The notes below the pieces were generated by a model. The model worked only from the letters and a program-made list of their open reading frames with translations. It ran no database searches and was not told where the DNA came from. Shown here in pieces: positions 4,844 to 59,482 of a DNA stretch of 64,000 nt (positions are counted from its first letter, which is position 1; each line of letters opens with the position of its first letter). The stretch lies in sequence record NZ_CP106961.1. One strand, given 5' to 3'. The position numbers and the translations under genes were made by a program. Origin of the DNA: a plasmid.

Positions 4844-5656
4844 GTGCTGGATGTTCATCCCAGTGGTTTTTACGCCTGGCTTCAGCAGCCGCATTCACAA
4901 CGCCATCAGGCAGACCTGAGACTGACAGGACAGATTAAACAGTTCTGGCTGGAATCGGGATGCGTCTATGGTTATCGCAAAATCCATCTGGATCTGCGTG
5001 ACAGCGGGCAACAGTGCGGAGTAAACAGAGTCTGGAGACTGATGAAACGTGTCGGAATAAAGGCTCAGGTCGGATACCGAAGCCCGCGGGCACGTAAAGG
5101 CGAGGCCAGTATCGTGTCACCCAACAGGCTCCAGCGACAGTTCAATCCGGATGCTCCTGATGAGCGTTGGGTAACGGACATAACCTACATCAGGACCCAC
5201 GAAGGCTGGCTGTATCTTGCCGTTGTTGTTGATCTGTTCTCACGCAAAATTATCGGCTGGTCCATGCAATCCCGAATGACAAAGGACATTGTCCTGAACG
5301 CACTGCTGATGGCTGTATGGCGGCGTAATCCCGAAAAACAGGTGCTGGTTCATTCGGATCAGGGCAGTCAGTACACAAGCCATGAGTGGCAGTCGTTCCT
5401 GAAATCACACGGCCTGGAGGGTAGCATGAGCCGTCGCGGTAACTGCCATGATAATGCGGTTGCAGAAAGTTTTTTCCAGTTGTTGAAACGTGAACGGATA
5501 AAGAAAAAGATCTACGGAACGCGGGAAGAAGCCCGCAGTGATATTTTTGATTACATCGAAATGTTTTATAACAGTAAGCGTCGGCATGGTTCTAGCGAAC
5601 AGATGTCACCGACAGAATATGAAAACCAGTATTATCAACGGCTCGGAAGTGTCTAG
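4844..5656 (+). CDS. IS3-family transposase OrfB (DDE integrase core). It is expressed as an OrfAB fusion by a -1 frameshift.
   Basis: Translation contains rve-domain motifs (HSDQGSQYTS, CHDNAVAESFF). Confidence 0.85.
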   Translation: MLDVHPSGFYAWLQQPHSQRHQADLRLTGQIKQFWLESGCVYGYRKIHLDLRDSGQQCGVNRVWRLMKRVGIKAQVGYRSPRARKGEASIVSPNRLQRQFNPDAPDERWVTDITYIRTHEGWLYLAVVVDLFSRKIIGWSMQSRMTKDIVLNALLMAVWRRNPEKQVLVHSDQGSQYTSHEWQSFLKSHGLEGSMSRRGNCHDNAVAESFFQLLKRERIKKKIYGTREEARSDIFDYIEMFYNSKRRHGSSEQMSPTEYENQYYQRLGSV

Positions 5657-12847: not shown

Positions 12848-14141
12848 ATTAAACCTCATCTCTCATATATTGGTTATGTCAGTAAGATACGTAAGTATTT
12901 CGTATCTCTCGTCGTTCGATAAATAAATTTAGTCGATGTGCAGGTCCTGTCAAACCTGTTTTTTATCATGCGTGAGGGTTTCCTGATATTACGGGGGGTG
13001 ATTTTACGTTTCGCTTGATTTATATAATCGACCACACTTACGCCAGTAACCTGCTGTTTTATGGGAGGGCCTGTAACAAAAATCAAAGACTAAAAGTAGT
13101 TAACGAAGCGCAAAGCACAATGTTTTCATGTGTAAGCAATCAGTTTCCAAAGATATAAAACGGATTTTTCTTATTTTGGCCAAAAAAAAGCCGCTGGGGA
13201 GCGGCTGTAAACAAGGGAAATCCAGATGCTTTCATACTATTTCAGGCTAGCTGTTGTTTTCATTTTTCACAAGTTGAATTACATAAGAGGTGACCATGCC
13301 TGTATCACATACTAACGTTCAGAATATAACGATCATAAATATTCTCGACACTTTTAGCGTCAGGTTTGATATTTTTCAATAGATCCATATTGTCGGACAA
13401 AATTGTACATATCTGTCCGCGTGGAAATGCCCGCAGAAAACATCCGGAACCAGCGCCAGCCGGAAGCCATGGCCTATTCAGCAGTAATTACCCGTTGGCG
13501 CATTTACGATCGAACTGGAGAGAAAAAAGCCCGCACGGGAGCGGGCATAATTCCCTTAGTTTTGTTATCAATCCCGCGCTCAGGACGCAGGTATATAACC
13601 TATCGACAGCATAAACAATTACTTTAAGAAGGCAATTTTTCAGGTCGTTGCCTGGCTCAACGGCGCAGGCGCAAATGGGGCCAGGACAGGGGCTACAGCA
13701 GCAGTGACAGATGAAGCGGGATATGTTGTCGCCTCGTTATACGATGAGATTTTCTGCTCTGCTGATCGTACGCTGATATCCAGTGATGCTGCGGAGATCG
13801 AGGGGTAAGTCTGAGGAAGAAGCCGAAGTGGTGGGACGGGTGGCATTTTTCTTCAACTTAACTGACAGTGATGAGTGTCCGGTATAAGAAGCGGCATAAA
13901 TTTGAACGCCATGGCGGGGGGAGATTTAATGTCTCCCCTTGTGGCCTCTAATGTCCACTATGAGCGGGAAGCGGACATTGAGCCATTCAAATAATCTGTG
14001 CCAAAATTTGTCATTAAGGCCAGCACTTTCGGGTAGATCCATTTCCCGCCCGCCCCTTAAACTCACCTTTCTCACTCACCTACGGCTTATCACCGGGAGT
14101 AAAAAACCCGCCGAAGCGGGTTTAGTAATTTGAATTTATTC

Positions 14142-14468
14142 TCAGGCGGCCATCTTTCTGCATTGCTCTGCGCAGTGATGACAAGCTCTGGAGCACTCCT
14201 GGCAATGGTCATGTTCATGCTTTCCACACTCATCGCCGCACTTCTGACAAACGTCAGCGCAAAGACGGCAGAGCGCTTGGGCTGAATCGCTATTTAGTGT
14301 CATGAATTGAGCTGCAAGACGGCAGATATTTGCACATTGCATATCCAGTTTTATGCACTCGCGCATCATCTCAAGATTCTCTTCTTCGAGACACGAAGCC
14401 GCACAGTTATCACATGCAGTTGCGCATAGATAACAGGATTCGATGCATTTTTTATATTCGTCTAACAT
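14142..14468 (-). CDS. Cysteine-rich four-helix-bundle copper-binding protein (DUF326 family)
   Basis: 108 aa with repeated CxxxC/CxxC motifs (CATACDNCAASC, CANICRLAA, CADVCQKCGDEC, CHHCAEQC). Confidence 0.7.
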   Translation of the reverse strand: MLDEYKKCIESCYLCATACDNCAASCLEEENLEMMRECIKLDMQCANICRLAAQFMTLNSDSAQALCRLCADVCQKCGDECGKHEHDHCQECSRACHHCAEQCRKMAA

Positions 14469-14605
14469 AATATCTCCTCAGCTAAGGTTACGTATTAAGC
14501 ATAGAAGAGATAACTGATTATACAATAATGGAATTAGTTAATAACCTTTTCAAGGTTTCACTCATATGATTTTAAATGCAAATTTAGGGTTACTTAAGCA
14601 CCAAT

Positions 14606-14629
14606 GCCCGCTTCTGGCACAAAGCGGAC
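14606..14629. repeat. Conserved hairpin motif, copy A (gcccgcttctggcacaaagcggac), immediately 3-prime of the vapC stop
   Basis: Stem CCGCTT/AAGCGG with loop CTGGCACA. It is one of five copies in the window. Confidence 0.8.
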
Positions 14630-14656
14630 ATCCCCCTTTCTCCGTTCTGTCTGCCG

Positions 14657-15073
14657 TCAGTTAACCCAGTCTTCCAGCACCAGGCCCGGCACGCGTTCAA
14701 ACTCTCTCACATTATTCGTCACGAGGACGGCACCAGCAGCAATCGCATGCCCGGCAATTGCCGTGTCGTTAGGGCCGATTGGCGTCCCGGCGAGGCGCAG
14801 CGCGACCTTAATGTCCGTGGTGGCGTCCACCGCAGCGCTGTCCCAGGGCAGGATGGCATCGAGGCGGGCGCAGAATGCGTCAACCAGCTGGATGTGGCGC
14901 GGGGAGGCTTTCGGGCCGGTGGCGCCGAAGCGCATCTCGGAATAGGTGATGGCCGAGATCACGATACGCTGGTTGCGCAGCACCGCCTGCTCCAGACGCT
15001 TCAGGACGGCTTCCGGCTGCTCGCGCATGATGAATGAGCAGATACAGGTGTCCAGCATATAGGTTTTATTCAC
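14657..15073 (-). CDS. vapC: VapC toxin (PIN-domain RNase) of a VapBC/MvpAT-type toxin-antitoxin pair
   Basis: PIN motifs (MLDTCICSF, VLVTNNVREFERVPGLVLEDW) resemble MvpA/VapC. The ATG overlaps the vapB stop (ATGA). Confidence 0.85.
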   Translation of the reverse strand: MNKTYMLDTCICSFIMREQPEAVLKRLEQAVLRNQRIVISAITYSEMRFGATGPKASPRHIQLVDAFCARLDAILPWDSAAVDATTDIKVALRLAGTPIGPNDTAIAGHAIAAGAVLVTNNVREFERVPGLVLEDWVN

Positions 15074-15300
15074 AGATCAAATCGTCCTTCGTCGGTGACA
15101 ACGTCCTCGCGCTCCGCCATAAAGTCCGGGTCTGCCTTCTCGAGCTGCGCGAACGAGCCCCAGGTCGGCCGGACGGGACGCAAAATAATGCTGTCCCCTT
15201 CCCGGACGATCTCCAGCTCGCTCACCCCCTCAAAATCGAGATCGCGGGGGAGGCGGATGGCGCGGTTGTTGCCATTTTTAAAAATGGATACGGTTCTCAT
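15070..15300 (-). CDS. vapB: VapB antitoxin (SpoVT/AbrB-type)
   Basis: 76 aa. The N-terminal sequence MRTVSIFKNGNNRAIRLPRDL is typical of VapB/MvpT antitoxins. It is translationally coupled to vapC. Confidence 0.85.
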   Translation of the reverse strand: MRTVSIFKNGNNRAIRLPRDLDFEGVSELEIVREGDSIILRPVRPTWGSFAQLEKADPDFMAEREDVVTDEGRFDL

Positions 15301-15369
15301 TTACGTTACACCCCATAATGCATGCGCCCGATACTCTGGGCATGGCCTGTGAAAAGCACAGGCGAATAA

Positions 15370-15470
15370 AAAAACACCACCTACCATTGCATAGGTATAG
15401 TATATGCAGATGTGAGGCATATGTATAGAGTCTAGATATGCAGATGTATGGCATATGGATATGGTCAGCC
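15370..15470. promoter_or_regulatory. Direct repeats (ATATGCAGATGTRWGGCATATG x2-3) upstream of vapB. This is a putative vapBC operator and promoter.
   Basis: The repeats are read from the sequence directly upstream of the vapB start. Toxin-antitoxin operons are typically autoregulated at such repeats. Confidence 0.4.
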
Positions 15471-15799
15471 TATACGGAGTATTCTCTTTTTTGCGCAGAT
15501 CCGAAAAAAGGTAAAGTCGGATCTGGACTGAGTAACCGTATGGAGGGGGATGGAAATACGGTAAGAGGGAGTCAAAGCAAAAGGCAGGTAGGAACGAAAG
15601 GTCCGCCTTGAGCGAGGAGCGGAACTTCACTCATACTCCCTCAGTTGATTGGATTAAAATTATCGTGCTGTCACCCACTCAGCTTCGCTGTAAGGGTGAC
15701 CAGCGAAAATTAAGCACAAATTTCTGAGATACAGGTTTTGCCGTCGTAAGACGAAATATTGGGCAGACAGTATTCGATCTCAGAGTCAAGCTCACTTAC

Positions 15800-16189
15800 T
15801 TATTTATCGACCATCAGCGGTACATCTTCCATTCTTGCGCCGCCGTTCAGCCGGAATGTGATAGTGATAATTTTCGGCAACGAAGTGGGTTCCAGGCCAC
15901 ACCACTTATTCATTGCACGGAGCGTTTCTTTCTCAAACACATCGGCGGGCTGCGCTGATAAGATTATGATGTTTTCCGCACACCCTTTTGTATTCACAGT
16001 GTATGAAGCCCTTACAACCCCCTCAATCCGGCCAGCCTGTGCTTTTGCAGGATAATAGGGCTGGTTCACCGTGGCGGATTTACCTGCCTTTGTGTCTCCA
16101 GGCGCATGTTGCTGGCCCGACAGTGTTTGCTTGTGAACACACCCTGTTGCCAGCATAGCCAGCGTTATAGCCATCATTAAACGTTTCAT
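15800..16189 (-). CDS. TonB C-terminal-domain family lipoprotein
   Basis: Signal peptide with a lipobox (MKRLMMAITLAMLATGC). The C-terminal part is TonB_C-like. An AAGGAAAAG ribosome-binding site lies upstream. Confidence 0.55.
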   Translation of the reverse strand: MKRLMMAITLAMLATGCVHKQTLSGQQHAPGDTKAGKSATVNQPYYPAKAQAGRIEGVVRASYTVNTKGCAENIIILSAQPADVFEKETLRAMNKWCGLEPTSLPKIITITFRLNGGARMEDVPLMVDK

Positions 16190-16353
16190 TCTTTTCCTTG
16201 ATAAAGCAGCCACCTGTAGCATCCCCAGCAAAATGAATACCGGACGTATTATTAGCAACTCGATAATAATACGTATTCATAGAAAGGTGCATGTGTGAGT
16301 ATTCCTGCAAAACTAACCATCAACCTTTAGAGAGTCTCTGGCAACCCCAACTT

Positions 16354-16375
16354 CCGCTTCTGGCACAAAGCGGAC
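16354..16375. repeat. Conserved hairpin motif, copy B (ccgcttctggcacaaagcggac)
   Basis: Same stem and loop as copy A. It lies about 180 bp 3-prime of the GIY-YIG gene. Confidence 0.8.
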
Positions 16376-16558
16376 CAGTGCGCAGAGCTAGGTCCGATAA
16401 GAGCGAGGAGCAGACGTTGACCATTCTGTTCAACGTCTTCAGACTCAGCCCTTAACTCTCAGTTCTTCGCGAATTGGACCTTGAAAGTAGATGCTACCTT
16501 TATGGTAAAGATCAACTGACTCATGGTGATGAGTCAGTTAAAATCTGTAAAAAAAATC

Positions 16559-17299
16559 TTAGACAATCCCAACTTTTACAAATGGACTTCCGTGACTGCG
16601 TGTTTTTTTGATTAATTTACCCACATACAAGTCTCTAACTTCTTTAGCTGCAATTCGGCCAACAAACTCGGAGCGATTGGTATTCATAGTAATGTTTAAA
16701 TCACGCGTAAAGTATTGTTGAGAGCCAGCCTTCACCCAGCACTGTATTTCATAGACCTCCATGACAAGCCCGCCATAAGTTGCGTAAGCAAATTTAAGTC
16801 TCTCGTCTTTAGGGATATTTGCCCAAATGCCGCGAGTGGACTCATATAGCTCCAATGCGCTCATACCAGACTTGTATGTACTGTTTAAAAGAAAGGCGAG
16901 CCCGGCATGTTCACATGCGATTTCGGTTTCTTCTTTGAGTAGCAAGTGCTGGAGTTCATCAAGCGTGATGCGTCCCATAAGAGAGCTACTTCCTCGAACT
17001 TTATTAGTAAGTTCTCCCACACCTAAGAGATCGATACATGTTGCCTCAACAAGTTTGGCCGTTGATTCATCCATTCCATGGCGAAGAATATCGATACCCA
17101 AGTTTTTTCTTTCTAAAAGCTCTTTGATCCGCTCAGATTTCGGAGATTCATCAGGACGTTTGATATGGTCAAGACAGCGATCGGACTTCCCCTTTCCAAT
17201 GTAAAAAGGCTTCTTGAACTCATCTTCCTTGTCATAAAAGGCATATACATAGTACTTAGCCAAATCCAAAGATTTTGTATATTTTGATAAATCCCTCAA
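16559..17299 (-). CDS. GIY-YIG nuclease-family protein (246 aa)
   Basis: The N-terminal sequence YVYAFYDKEDEFKKPFYIGKGKSDRCLDH matches the GIY...YIG motif. The C-terminal 150 aa are uncharacterised. Confidence 0.65.
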   Translation of the reverse strand: MRDLSKYTKSLDLAKYYVYAFYDKEDEFKKPFYIGKGKSDRCLDHIKRPDESPKSERIKELLERKNLGIDILRHGMDESTAKLVEATCIDLLGVGELTNKVRGSSSLMGRITLDELQHLLLKEETEIACEHAGLAFLLNSTYKSGMSALELYESTRGIWANIPKDERLKFAYATYGGLVMEVYEIQCWVKAGSQQYFTRDLNITMNTNRSEFVGRIAAKEVRDLYVGKLIKKTRSHGSPFVKVGIV

Positions 17300-17423
17300 T
17301 GTTTGTTTCCTTAGCTACCGATGTTGAAATTAATTTCATTATCGGCATGACGTAATAGAACTTAAGTCCTGGTTGAGAAAGTGAACTCCTTACAATTTAT
17401 TCTTGTGCCACGATGTTAGTCAC

Positions 17424-17446
17424 GTCCGCTCCTGGCACAAAGCGAC
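17424..17446. repeat. Conserved hairpin motif, copy C (gtccgctcctggcacaaagcgac), upstream of the GIY-YIG gene
   Basis: Variant copy that retains the loop CTGGCACA. Confidence 0.7.
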
Positions 17447-17877
17447 CTTTGTCATGAATCCTGACTCACTGTCTGAGGCAGGAGCAGGCCCGCTGAATGC
17501 GGCTTTAGCGGCAGGAAGCGTTAGATAACGTTGAGCTGAACGGCGCCGTAAGCCCGGCTCCGCCGGTTATATTCTGATATATGGCGCTCCCCATTCCTGT
17601 CAGTGTATCGAATCTCACAGGTGAACCAGCCGCAGACTGCTTCCATAGGCTGCAGGTTAAAACGTTTGCTTACTTTCTGAATCATGAGGGCTTTTCTGGT
17701 GGCCCAATATCCGGTTAACGATAACTTTCAGAAAATGAACCCTGCCTCTCTGGGATGATTAGGATTAACTAATCATCTTATGGAATTGTAAAATCCCGTA
17801 TGAAATTAAAAAATCTGTGCGGGATTGCCGTTTTATTAAGGCTGCACTGCAGTCAATTAAAGAGAGGGAGACTGAAT

Positions 17878-18300
17878 ATGCGTGTTCGCCTGACCACTGA
17901 AAACGATGCTATATCACTGATTACTATCGATATTGTTGCCCAGAGCCAGCCAAAAGGTGCGGCGCAAATCCGCATCTGGTGTGCCTGGTCTGTCTGTTAT
18001 ATTGCCGAACTGCAGGGAATAGCGATGGGATATGGCGTGCTGAACTACCATTTCTTCGGCTACGGCTTTATTGAAATGCTGATGGTAGGGGAACACTACC
18101 GCCGCAGGGGTATCGGTCTGGCGTTGATTGCAGCATTGAAGTCCCGCTGCCAGCACCCGAAGCTGTTCACCTCCACCCATCGTTCTAACCTGCCAATGCA
18201 ACGGCTGCTGTTGAACGCCGGATTTATCCCCAGCGGTCAGGTCGACAATCTCGATGACGGGGACCCGGAAGCGATATTTTTTATTCCAGCCTTAACGTAG
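17878..18300 (+). CDS. GNAT-family N-acetyltransferase
   Basis: Acetyl-CoA-binding motif (RRRGIGLALI). Start chosen at MRVRLTTEND, which has a ribosome-binding site. Confidence 0.7.
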   Translation: MRVRLTTENDAISLITIDIVAQSQPKGAAQIRIWCAWSVCYIAELQGIAMGYGVLNYHFFGYGFIEMLMVGEHYRRRGIGLALIAALKSRCQHPKLFTSTHRSNLPMQRLLLNAGFIPSGQVDNLDDGDPEAIFFIPALT

Positions 18301-18759
18301 CGCAGAGAGAAGGGTACACAGACACCCATATCCAGGGTGCCAGGCTCAGCGAGGCCAGGGTTTTAGCGACCTCTGTATCTAACGGGAAGTGCCTCTCTGA
18401 GAAGGTTCTGGCAGTGAATCAGGCAAAAACTGGCCGGGTGTAAGGTAAATCATCTTTCTGATAAATCGGGTCTTTACCTTCAGGCTGCGTCTGAGATTGC
18501 TGCCGATAATTGCTAACTGTTTTACGCAAATATTCCCGCAACGCTACCGGCTGCTGCCGCTCGGCTTGATGCGGCATCATCCTGACCTTTTCCCGGCTGT
18601 CTTTGACCGTCATCCCCGGCCAGCATTCCTCAACGTATCCGATAAGAAACCTCCCGATTGCCTTGCTGTCGATTGCGTTATCAATCATGGCAGCTAAGCT
18701 TAGTTGACACTTACCCGGTCGGGCAGCCACACCTTTCCGGCCGCAAGCAGGAGAAGATC

Positions 18760-22521: not shown

Positions 22522-22545
22522 GTCCGCTTATGGCACTAAGCGGAC
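22522..22545. repeat. Conserved hairpin motif, copy D (gtccgcttatggcactaagcggac). It has a perfect 8-bp stem.
   Basis: It lies between the LysR stop and the vapC remnant. Confidence 0.75.
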
Positions 22546-42794: not shown

Positions 42795-43787
42795 ATGAGC
42801 CTGATGCCTGATGACGAACAGGAACGTAATCTTCTGGCAGCAGCGATCCCGCTGGATGAGACATTTCTGCCGGCGCTGTCCGGCAATAACGTTCCGGTAA
42901 ATCCGGCCCGGGCTTACCTATTGTCCCTTAATTCCCAACGTAGCCGGCAGACCATGGCTTCGTTCCTCGGGATTGTCGCCAAAATGCTTGGTGCCGGTAG
43001 CGCTGACACCTGCAACTGGGGCAGCATTCGCCGGTATCACGTTATGGTAATCACCGAGTTACTGCGCGATACTGGCCGGGGGATGGCAACTATTAACACC
43101 TATCTGTCGGCTCTTAAGGGCGTAGCGAAGGAAGCCTGGATGCTCCGCCTGATGGACGTTGAGAGCTTCCAGCACATCCGGGCGGTACCGAACCTGCGTG
43201 GCAGCCGGCTGCCAAGCGGTCGGGCCCTGCCGCCGGAGGAGATCCGCGCGTTGTTTGCCGTGTGTGAGGCCGATCGCAGCTGCCTCGGGCCGAGGGACGC
43301 GGCGATGCTGGCGGTTATCCTGGGATGTGGCCTGCGGCGGTCCGAGGCCGTGGGCCTAGATTTACGTGACGTTGTCACGCACAATCGGGCGCTACGGGTG
43401 CTGGGGAAGGGGAACAAGGAGCGTCTGGCCTACGTCCCGGCCGGGGCCTGGCAGCGGCTGCAGATCTGGATCGATGAGGTCCGGGGCGAAACCCCGGGGC
43501 CGCTGTTCACGCGGATCCGCCGCTTCGGGGATGTGACACTGAACCGGCTCACCGACCAGGCGGTGTACCATATCCTGCAGGTGCGTCAGGGGCAGGCCGG
43601 GATCGGTAAGTGCTCGCCACATGACCTGCGCAGGACCTTCGCAACTGCCATGCTGGATAACGGTGAGGACTTAATTACGGTTAAAGATGCGATGGGTCAC
43701 GCCAGCGTTACGACCACCCAACAGTACGATCGTCGCGGAGAACAGCGTCTTCGAGATGCCCGCGATAGGCTCAATCTTGTCAAATGA
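42795..43787 (+). CDS. Tyrosine-type site-specific recombinase / integrase
   Basis: C-terminal catalytic motifs (LRRSEAVGL...HDLRRTFAT...GHASVTTTQQYD). GC-rich. Confidence 0.75.
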   Translation: MSLMPDDEQERNLLAAAIPLDETFLPALSGNNVPVNPARAYLLSLNSQRSRQTMASFLGIVAKMLGAGSADTCNWGSIRRYHVMVITELLRDTGRGMATINTYLSALKGVAKEAWMLRLMDVESFQHIRAVPNLRGSRLPSGRALPPEEIRALFAVCEADRSCLGPRDAAMLAVILGCGLRRSEAVGLDLRDVVTHNRALRVLGKGNKERLAYVPAGAWQRLQIWIDEVRGETPGPLFTRIRRFGDVTLNRLTDQAVYHILQVRQGQAGIGKCSPHDLRRTFATAMLDNGEDLITVKDAMGHASVTTTQQYDRRGEQRLRDARDRLNLVK

Positions 43788-46896: not shown

Positions 46897-47369
46897 TGCG
46901 TGAATTTAATACCACCCGGCAAACCATACACAGGGTAAAGGCAGGGCAATAATGATCCTGCGTTCACAGCTGGACGGTCTGCTATAAAGTGAGGTGCAGA
47001 CATTGTCACAGACTTCCGCGCCTCGCTCATAGCAGTCAGAAAGCGTTGTTGCTGGCTGCTCTGTGCTGTGAGTTCAACTGTTCGATGCAACGCTCAGACG
47101 CGCTCAGCGCGTTTCTGACATGTCCTCGTTAAAAACAGTAACAAACCACCCGAAAATGCACGCCAGAAACGCTACGTAAGAATCTATCCTATGCTGGATA
47201 TGCACTCAACTGAATAACGCCTGGTTTCAGTCTGTTTTATCGGCATCAGCCTTCTTTCTGGGTAATTTCGGAGAGGTCACTTGCTGATTACTTTGCGTGC
47301 GTCGCGTGAGCCAGGGCAACCCGATATGGCCGTATCCGCCCGCAAAAAAGTGGCCCTCATCGTCGACTT

Positions 47370-51602: not shown

Positions 51603-51626
51603 GTTCGCTTCTGGCACAAAACGGAC
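51603..51626. repeat. Conserved hairpin motif, copy E (gttcgcttctggcacaaaacggac)
   Basis: Same loop CTGGCACA. It lies between the LysR stop and the vapC remnant. Confidence 0.7.
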
Positions 51627-59349: not shown

Positions 59350-59425
59350 CTATCTGGGGGCCGCTTGGAAAACGGAAAATATCCTACGTTAAGCCTGTTT
59401 TTTAAGCAGGAATGACAGGCAGCAA
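59350..59425 (+). repeat. Tn3-family end micro-remnant (38-bp IR GGGGGCCGCTTGGAAAACGGAAAATATCCTACGTTAAG plus tnpA 3-prime codons ...FLLKKQA* on the minus strand), interior pointing right
   Basis: Inverted near-duplicate of 44100-44215. Confidence 0.65.
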
Positions 59426-59482
59426 TGAGCGAACAGCGGACGTTGACGTTCTTTATAAAAATTCGGTTTGTGTTGTTTTGCA

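Follow-up and report, generated by a model that had tools for sequence, protein, structure and literature searches.

The DNA analysed here, referred to as the window, is a stretch of 64,000 nucleotides from a plasmid (sequence record NZ_CP106961.1), and our subject is a minus-strand gene within it for a 246-residue protein with a GIY-YIG nuclease motif, together with the module that carries this gene and the two types of conserved site, A and B, found at the module's ends (Table 1). The open reading frame (ORF; 16559–17299) initiates at TTG, with AAGGAA as its ribosome-binding site, and encodes a product starting MRDLSKYTKSLDLAKYYVYAFYDKEDEFKKPFYIGKGK; RefSeq annotates it as a hypothetical protein (WP_022652289.1). 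As originally predicted, the gene lies between two copies of a repeat (16347–16375 and 17419–17447); these copies are real, and a third is found at 14601–14629. Two related 24-bp near-palindromes can be recognised, type A (GTCCGCTTTGTGCCAGAAGCGGAC) and type B (GTCCGCTATGAGCGAGGAGCGGAC), each consisting of 8-nt arms around an 8-nt centre. Read along the plus strand, the order is B at 13953, a DUF326 gene, A at 14606, vapBC, B at 15601, a TonB_C gene, A at 16352, 16 nt, B at 16392, the GIY-YIG gene, A at 17424, a segment running from a GNAT gene to a LysR gene, and A at 22522, the A sites of this cluster being minus-strand and the B sites plus-strand. The nuclease gene had been described as the immediate neighbour of vapBC; in fact the TonB_C module (15601–16375) intervenes.

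The sole PADLOC match of the 246-residue protein is the PD-T4-3 model (PDLC04031; E 3.6e-23, 80.5 bits, residues 13–235 against profile positions 13–243 of 256), and a phmmer search of all Protein Data Bank (PDB) sequences likewise returned only 9u75 and 9u7u, the PD-T4-3 proteins of E. coli O157:H7 and avian pathogenic E. coli (APEC) O1 (E 4e-16, residues 14–231 against 19–244). Pfam places LEM-3_GIY-YIG at residues 32–105 (E 6e-8), and NCBIfam has no family for the protein. When an AlphaFold (AF2) model built on 30 homologues (predicted local distance difference test, pLDDT, 84) was used in a Foldseek search, four PD-T4-3 entries ranked first (E 4e-12 to 1e-10 over ~255 aligned columns; best 9u75/9u7u, E 3.6e-12, probability 1.00), followed by UvrC GIY-YIG domains at E ≥ 0.02 that cover the N-terminal 90 residues only, and the C-terminal half gave no confident match to any PDB entry besides PD-T4-3. 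The global TM-score against the PD-T4-3 structures is only 0.40, which would be consistent with an altered relative orientation of the two domains across a flexible linker. Residues Y17, Y19, Y33, G35, R41, H45, E85 and N99 are invariant across the 30 homologues. Y17-V-Y19 and Y33-I-G35 align with Y17, Y19 and Y31 of CMoRE, the name now given to PD-T4-3, and R41 and E85 with its conserved Arg and Glu, such that the third tyrosine of the GIYxY-YIG hallmark (as defined in PMC12923530) and the catalytic Arg and Glu are all present; the alignment to residue 231 of 246 and the Foldseek result extend the match over the C-terminal modification-sensing domain of the CMoRE fold. This domain, earlier called uncharacterised, therefore corresponds in the PADLOC, phmmer and Foldseek comparisons to one with a solved structure and a role, and the structure search and PADLOC scan identify PD-T4-3 rather than a UvrC- or Slx1-like fragment or a homing-endonuclease pseudogene. 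Weak Foldseek matches of the C-terminal domain to YTH m6A-reader domains (probability 0.1–0.2, ranked below PD-T4-3) hint that the fold may be a PUA-like reader of modified bases, although in the CMoRE study (PMC12923530) no structural relatives were reported.

PD-T4-3 was recovered by functional selection in E. coli (Vassallo et al. 2022 screen), and a deletion study showed that it restricts Tevenvirinae in a native host. It was renamed CMoRE as a type IV, modification-dependent endonuclease (Liu et al., Nat Commun 2026, PMC12923530), in which the GIY-YIG domain cuts DNA containing 5-hydroxymethylcytosine (5hmC) or glucosyl-5hmC (ghmC), a novel C-terminal domain binds the modified base, and the single gene experimentally restricts T-even phages. 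The protein described here resembles the PD-T4-3/CMoRE proteins of E. coli ECOR68, APEC O1 and O157:H7 (PDB 9U7U, 9U75) in being a single-gene product of ~250 residues that aligns end to end. The module contains one credible gene only and homologues stand alone in varied contexts, as for a single-component system. A stand-alone nuclease with a defence or restriction-like role, as first proposed, is what full-length homology to the validated PD-T4-3/CMoRE would predict.

Several points weigh against simply equating the two activities. Identity in the Foldseek alignments is only 25–28%, and the protein belongs to a separate, tightly conserved subfamily of ~246 residues (399 database relatives, 52–92% identity among 29 aligned homologues, with members in Enterobacterales, Providencia and Shewanella, among others) whose activity is predicted from homology. 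The single contact to 5hmC described for CMoRE is a main-chain oxygen, so the specificity of the 246-residue protein is not readable from the alignment. In CMoRE, four consecutive D/E residues in a 15-residue acidic loop keep the enzyme off ordinary DNA and their mutation is toxic, and this autoinhibitory loop is found in 'most' members of the family. Here, the loop between α2 and α3 is five residues shorter and has two adjacent acidic residues (D50-E51) instead of four (...RPDESPKS... versus ...AADDDDLLS... in CMoRE), and the consensus of the 30 homologues is without an acidic run in this loop; regulation, and even substrate, may therefore differ. Taking these alignments together, we regard membership of the PD-T4-3/CMoRE family as highly probable, and favour with moderate confidence a modification-dependent restriction enzyme that would protect its host from phages with hypermodified cytosines, most likely by cutting 5hmC/ghmC phage DNA. 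The gene alone is a somewhat atypical new member of a known defence family; its packaging, and the system of sites behind it, are less expected.

The number of sites in the window is far above chance. The 13-mer CTGGCACAAAGCG occurs three times exactly, and with up to two mismatches it has 11 matches against 2.1 expected, a count reached in none of 100 shuffles, while ten sites score at least 18/24 compared with ~0.1 in shuffles. The repeats had been called hairpins. As conserved repeats they stand, but single-strand folding exceeds that of shuffled sequence only for the copy at 16352–16375 (−6.7 kcal/mol, z −2.3); at 17424 and 16392 it is no better than in shuffles (z +0.3 and +1.0, respectively). 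With one of the three gene-side copies folding in this way, 'hairpin' is a weak description, and we refer instead to conserved near-palindromic sites. Some other functions considered for the sites were dropped. A sigma-54 promoter (TGGCAC-N5-TTGC) lacks its −12 element, an intrinsic terminator is contradicted by the missing T-run and by a terminator scan that calls none, and a primosome-assembly site (AAGCGG) rests on a 6-mer and cannot explain arrays. A serine-resolvase site I or hix-like site (12-2-12, central GC, TGTCY ends) is unsupported, as the res region of Tn5403 contains nothing similar, and no serine recombinase is consistently linked to the sites. Rfam returned nothing at the A and B sites at E ≤ 1, and we found no description of them in the searchable literature.

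Table 1 Positions of the nuclease gene, its module and neighbouring features in the window
Feature	Position	Strand	Remarks
Module (B-type site, GIY-YIG gene plus its upstream region, A-type site)	16392–17447		1,056 bp; from homology and junction alignments
PD-T4-3/CMoRE-family GIY-YIG nuclease gene, 246 residues	16559–17299	−	N-terminal nuclease domain and C-terminal domain homologous to the CMoRE modification-sensing domain
A-type site, upstream module boundary (earlier copy C)	17424–17447	−	minus-strand sequence GGTCGCTTTGTGCCAGGAGCGGAC
B-type site, downstream module boundary	16392–16415	+	GTCCGATAAGAGCGAGGAGCAGAC
Promoter-like block	17338–17365	−	TTAAGT, 16 nt, GATAAT; common to homologues
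Perfect hairpin, 11-bp stem and 4-nt loop	16514–16539		20 nt past the nuclease stop codon; read from sequence
A-type site of the TonB_C module (earlier copy B)	16352–16375	−	with spacer 16376–16391 and the B site, a typical B/~18 nt/A junction
Neighbouring modules on the same sites	13953–16375		DUF326 Cu-binding gene, vapBC, TonB_C gene; A 14606–14629, B 15601–15624
A-type site closing the GNAT-to-LysR segment	22522–22545	−	segment starts at the 17424 site

Comparison with other replicons shows where the module ends. Window positions 13300–18400 are 100% identical to three Leclercia plasmids, including pLEC-5e18, two of them from L. adecarboxylata. The block 16392–17444 alone, which ends in the core of the A site, is found at 99.9–100% identity in IncF plasmids of Enterobacter, Citrobacter and Serratia, there between Tn5403 (or an insertion sequence, IS) and relBE in a backbone unlike that of the window, and the homology to these plasmids begins at the first base of the B site, 16392. 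This B site, 16 nt from the A site previously taken as the left repeat, is therefore the real left edge, and the unit is 16392–17447; a repeat-delimited cassette recurring in other backbones is thus confirmed, although not with the limits 16354–17446 first given to it. On the other side, the GNAT segment, from window position 17422–17424 onwards, is common to Salmonella, Klebsiella, Pantoea and Acinetobacter plasmids, and at the 17424 A site it is joined to three different left neighbours, among them arsH and an acetyltransferase module. The 17424 site itself is a hybrid, with the gene-side arm GTCCGCTCC as in the IncF lineage and an outer flank as in the GNAT-bearing plasmids, which places a crossover inside CTGGCACAAAGCG.

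More diverged copies keep the same flanks. In the Salmonella chromosome an 82%-identical copy occupies the yfgI–guaA interval, where K-12 has nothing, and is flanked by an A-like site (~130 nt upstream) and a B site (63 nt downstream); a 92%-identical copy is part of a chromosomal array ordered A, gene, B, 18 nt, A and so on; and a Providencia copy has a degenerate B/A junction downstream. Other cargo behaves likewise, as the DUF326 module (13953–14631), with both of its sites at the ends, is present at 87.8% identity in IncHI2-type Enterobacter plasmids. A check of genomic neighbours, suggested with the original prediction, thus finds the A/B flanks retained in diverged copies but not in distant homologues (from an E. 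coli phage-plasmid, Shewanella and one further chromosome), a point against the explanation favoured here. A megablast search of the module against 5,426 E. coli genomes gave no match. These comparisons support the segment between the sites as a discrete unit, with homology breaking inside the repeats, and we consider it very probable that the A and B sites are junctions of modules.

The movement of the gene as a compact unit with conserved flanks, and the occurrence of GIY-YIG domains in homing endonucleases, raise the idea of a selfish or homing enzyme whose cleavage at or close to the flanking repeats mobilises its own cassette, with no role in defence. The same sites, however, flank cargo that is not a nuclease (DUF326, TonB_C, vapBC, GNAT and LysE genes), distant homologues are without sites, there is no intron or intein context, and the protein aligns along its whole length with CMoRE and not with the DNA-binding modules of I-TevI type, leaving a self-mobilising nuclease as the least probable of the alternatives considered here.

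A parallel to modules with breaks inside their sites is provided by the pdif modules of Acinetobacter, which also consist of one to a few genes, including toxin-antitoxin pairs, between alternating inverted sites of ~24–28 bp. Short modules of this architecture shared by unrelated plasmids are what we observe, and recombination by the host XerC/XerD recombinases, being universal, would explain a wide host range. Yet the site found here, GTCCGCTTT-GTGCCA-GAAGCGGAC, does not resemble the XerC/XerD arms (11-6-11) of dif or cer, and a genuine cer-like site (GGTGCGCGTAA-TGAGGCG-TTATGGTAAAT), 13 nt outside the B site in the IncF plasmids, looks entirely different. Unlike pdif sites, the A and B sites are unrelated to dif, have two heterospecific centres (TGTGCCAG and TGAGCGAG), occur also in chromosomal arrays and extend far past one genus, and their candidate enzyme, described below, is a 200-residue recombinase and not XerCD. 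We therefore judge pdif-like sites recombined by XerC/XerD to be very improbable. The cer-like site lies at 4961–4989 of locus L002, from an Enterobacter IncFIB plasmid, and an inverted repeat resembling those of the Tn3 family (GGGG...CGCTAAG) is found just ahead of it.

Between the A site and the start codon, a distance of 125–129 nt in three site-flanked copies of the nuclease gene, the promoter-like block of Table 1 (CTTAAGTTC...TGCCGATART) is invariant in four diverged copies, so the cassette probably carries its own expression signals. Its putative role as a promoter is suggested by this conservation; the block scores under the threshold of a consensus promoter scanner. The perfect hairpin downstream of the gene is possibly a terminator, with no clear U-tract after it and no call in the terminator scan.

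The distribution of the sites was surveyed by an exact-pattern scan with one genome per species, from which at least 120 loci of 8 kb each were listed. Represented, by both chromosomes and plasmids, are Pantoea, Erwinia, Mixta, Rouxiella, Citrobacter, Klebsiella and Leclercia; many Alphaproteobacteria (Pseudolabrys, Methyloceanibacter, Xanthobacteraceae) and a small number of Acidobacteria, Gallionella, Planctomycetes and others also appear. Of 5,426 complete E. coli genomes, 3,723 carry between one and six site places (median 1, maximum 6). Among the loci listed, the order 'A, cargo of 0.25–6 kb, inverted B' was found 48 times and 'B, 14–22 nt, A' 34 times, compared with only nine cases of the reverse slot 'B, cargo, A', and the cargo is diverse, comprising LysR regulators, transporters and toxin-antitoxin pairs. 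In 287 A and 76 B sites from other loci listed, conservation of the central 8 nt equals that of the arms, and in sites outside any search pattern the B centre TGAGCGA reaches 94–97%. Such a centre is consistent with recognition by a protein rather than with a generic hairpin. Covariation between arms is mixed, for pairing inside one site as for pairing across the two halves (B and A) of a junction.

An array of mostly single-gene units separated by imperfect palindromes of ~66 nt, with toxin-antitoxin and defence genes among the cargo, also describes integron gene cassettes, and the B/spacer/A junction could be taken for an attC site in a cluster of attC sites lacking integron-integrases (CALIN). 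The junction halves are ~20/24 complementary with fixed mismatches, and in the window CAAC and GTTG stand at the outer edges of the junction. These edges, however, are a mere extension of the palindrome, and no IntI-type integrase lies in the window or near the arrays examined. Furthermore, the sites are conserved in sequence across phyla, rather than in structure as attC sites are (with RYYYAAC/GTTRRRY ends), the junction halves can be separated by whole genes (vapBC, a recombinase gene), the cassette has its own promoter region, and arrays are common in Alphaproteobacteria, which are not known to carry integrons. An integron cassette is thus a highly improbable description of the module.

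A more serious alternative is that the 24-bp repeats are dispersed palindromes similar to repetitive extragenic palindromes (REPs) and bacterial interspersed mosaic elements (BIMEs), with a structural or regulatory function and no dedicated recombinase, the junctions arising from RecA-dependent or illegitimate recombination and IS insertion at short-repeat hot spots; the assignment of the protein would be unchanged. The sites are indeed found in the chromosomes of many phyla, form direct arrays in Alphaproteobacteria, and alternate in orientation as A and B, in this resembling the Y and Z units of E. coli BIMEs. IS110-family transposases lie near two arrays, and 24 bp of identity is near the minimum for RecA exchange, so homologous recombination could yield the same junctions. 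ORF clustering of the 120 loci listed found LysR regulators and transporters as the only conserved neighbours, and no recombinase gene conserved within 8 kb of 120 sites listed. The copy number, on the other hand, is low, at one to six places per E. coli genome, and not high as for REPs; the same 24-mer occurs in several phyla among the loci listed, whereas REPs are lineage-specific; and a loop conserved like the stem, with most copies folding poorly, argues against a hairpin function in RNA or DNA. Neither the strict order A, cargo, B, 18 nt, A nor the repeated flanking of one recombinase family would be expected of passive repeats. The integron, Xer and self-mobilising-nuclease explanations each fail a tested defining feature, and passive repeats are the main rival to recombination sites, albeit one we consider unlikely.

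Some further observations concern the sites and their surroundings. Several alphaproteobacterial loci (L027, L038, L018 and others) hold as many as seven directly oriented A-type sites separated by short distances of 21 or 67 nt, palindromes that are often translated as spurious ORFs (e.g. MSAKCQKRTF...), and many alphaproteobacterial sites follow genes for ABC substrate-binding proteins. Genes for IS110-family (DEDD) transposases, a family that targets palindromic repeats, lie near site arrays and near a distant nuclease homologue (locus L144, 2503–3393 and 17291–18529; locus L142, 723–1766). In an E. coli CP4-like chromosomal island (locus L130), an A-type site at 5002–5025 has a yeeP-like GTPase gene on one side and, on the other, a variable stretch with ParA-family genes and a type I restriction system. 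In the window itself, three further A- or B-type sites with 19–22/24 matches (47014–47037, 51603–51626 and 59418–59441) lie at a distance from the main cluster, near betT and the sucrose-utilisation regions, and site positions past ~45 kb are offset by ~2.3 kb relative to pLEC-5e18 (NZ_CP026390.1), so that the window probably derives from a plasmid closely related to pLEC-5e18, perhaps one of the two from L. adecarboxylata. The 5.1-kb segment 17424–22545, bounded by A-type sites, encodes a GNAT protein, a small ORF, a glutathione-independent formaldehyde dehydrogenase, an alpha/beta hydrolase and a LysR regulator. The vapBC pair (14657–15300, minus strand) occupies the rare reverse slot, from B at 15601 to A at 14606 (window 14606–15624), and gives the impression of an insertion into a B/spacer/A junction. 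A 31-nt sequence is present ~100–165 nt upstream of vapB in two tandem copies with a spacing of 34 nt (15402–15466; ATATGCAGATGT.AGGCATATG.ATA...), which may be an operator or promoter repeat.

If the sites are recombined by an enzyme of their own, a candidate is provided by the chromosomal array, in which the last B site is followed, after 40 nt, by a truncated gene for a short tyrosine recombinase. The intact protein (for example WP_001752951.1) has 200 residues and the full R...HxxR...H...Y catalytic set, without an N-terminal DNA-binding domain (Pfam Phage_integrase), and NCBIfam gives only weak matches, far under the cut-offs, to XerA/XerC and to 'tyrosine-type DNA invertase' (E 5e-6). 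It is found in three site-bearing loci and on ~90 Enterobacterales plasmids, with relatives at 50–60% identity in Phaeobacter, Sinorhizobium, Agrobacterium, Cupriavidus, Marinobacter and Vibrio, and its host range (Pantoea, Escherichia, Klebsiella, alpha- and betaproteobacteria) parallels that of the sites. A B-like site lies ~40 nt ahead of the recombinase ATG in all seven Enterobacterales contexts examined, and an A-like site 19–45 nt past the stop codon wherever both flanks were read, a reverse-slot placement like that of vapBC. In the four contexts read base by base, the gene-facing arms are non-canonical and the outward arms canonical, and degenerate palindromes stand beside the Roseovarius, Marinobacter, Acetobacter and Cupriavidus homologues. 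In its ~200-residue, catalytic-domain-only form the candidate resembles the FimB/FimE invertases and the Rci shufflon recombinase, whose sites also flank segments in inverted orientation, although the sites here differ from fimS and sfx and the segments are independent genes and not promoter or gene-tail switches.

Against such an assignment, a search for the short recombinase was negative in the window, in pLEC-5e18 (of whose 195 kb all except 10 kb were read) and in those parts of the IncF plasmids that were retrieved, and it is absent from ~115 of the 120 site-bearing 8-kb loci listed; its gene could be simply cargo. The link between this recombinase and the sites, and the site-specific nature of the recombination, are inferred, and that the short tyrosine recombinase is the enzyme acting on the A and B sites is a proposal we make with some hesitation. 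A 54%-identical homologue in Vibrio parahaemolyticus pVPS43 (locus L163, 5998–6594) lies inside a defence island, between a type I restriction-modification operon and a SIR2 and DUF87 (HerA-like) pair, and no A or B site is recognisable at that locus. The window does encode a tyrosine recombinase of 330 residues (42795–43787, beside an IS1 copy), which was rejected as a candidate, being unrelated past the catalytic motif and having no adjoining A or B site.

The explanation we consider probable as a whole is that of a CMoRE-type restriction enzyme carried on a module bounded by recombination sites A and B. The N-terminal GIY-YIG domain (Y17-V-Y19 ... Y33-I-G) would do the cutting and the C-terminal domain would recognise a modified base in invading DNA, the likely target being phage DNA with hydroxymethyl- or glucosyl-cytosine, and the plasmid would in this way protect its host from T-even-like phages. 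The modules would be joined, swapped and inserted at A and B sites acting as recombination junctions, most likely by site-specific recombination of A with A and of B with B, the candidate enzyme being the ~200-residue catalytic-domain-only tyrosine recombinase supplied in trans. Within an array, one 'A-cargo-B' unit could be excised or inserted, while between replicons a fusion would come first and an exchange of units would follow; the two types of centre would keep the ends distinct, similar to heterospecific lox sites in cassette exchange. Such a module system would be like pdif modules and integrons and apparently undescribed. More speculatively, the sites and the ~200-residue recombinase gene that they always flank could represent a previously undescribed and widespread module-shuffling system, moving self-expressed one-gene cargo, including this CMoRE-like enzyme, toxin-antitoxin pairs and genes for metals or stress, among plasmids of Enterobacterales, chromosomal islands and alpha- and betaproteobacterial replicons.

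A plasmid-borne, divergent CMoRE branch without the acidic safety catch raises the questions of how self-damage is avoided and whether a different modification is read, both of which bear on phage therapy against Enterobacterales and on enzymes that read modified bases. A 1-kb unit that moves among IncF plasmids, large metal-resistance plasmids and chromosomes would be a concrete route for the spread of phage defence in clinical Enterobacter, Citrobacter, Serratia and Leclercia. If a dedicated recombinase does act on the A and B sites, they would constitute a third natural gene-cassette system beside integrons and pdif modules.

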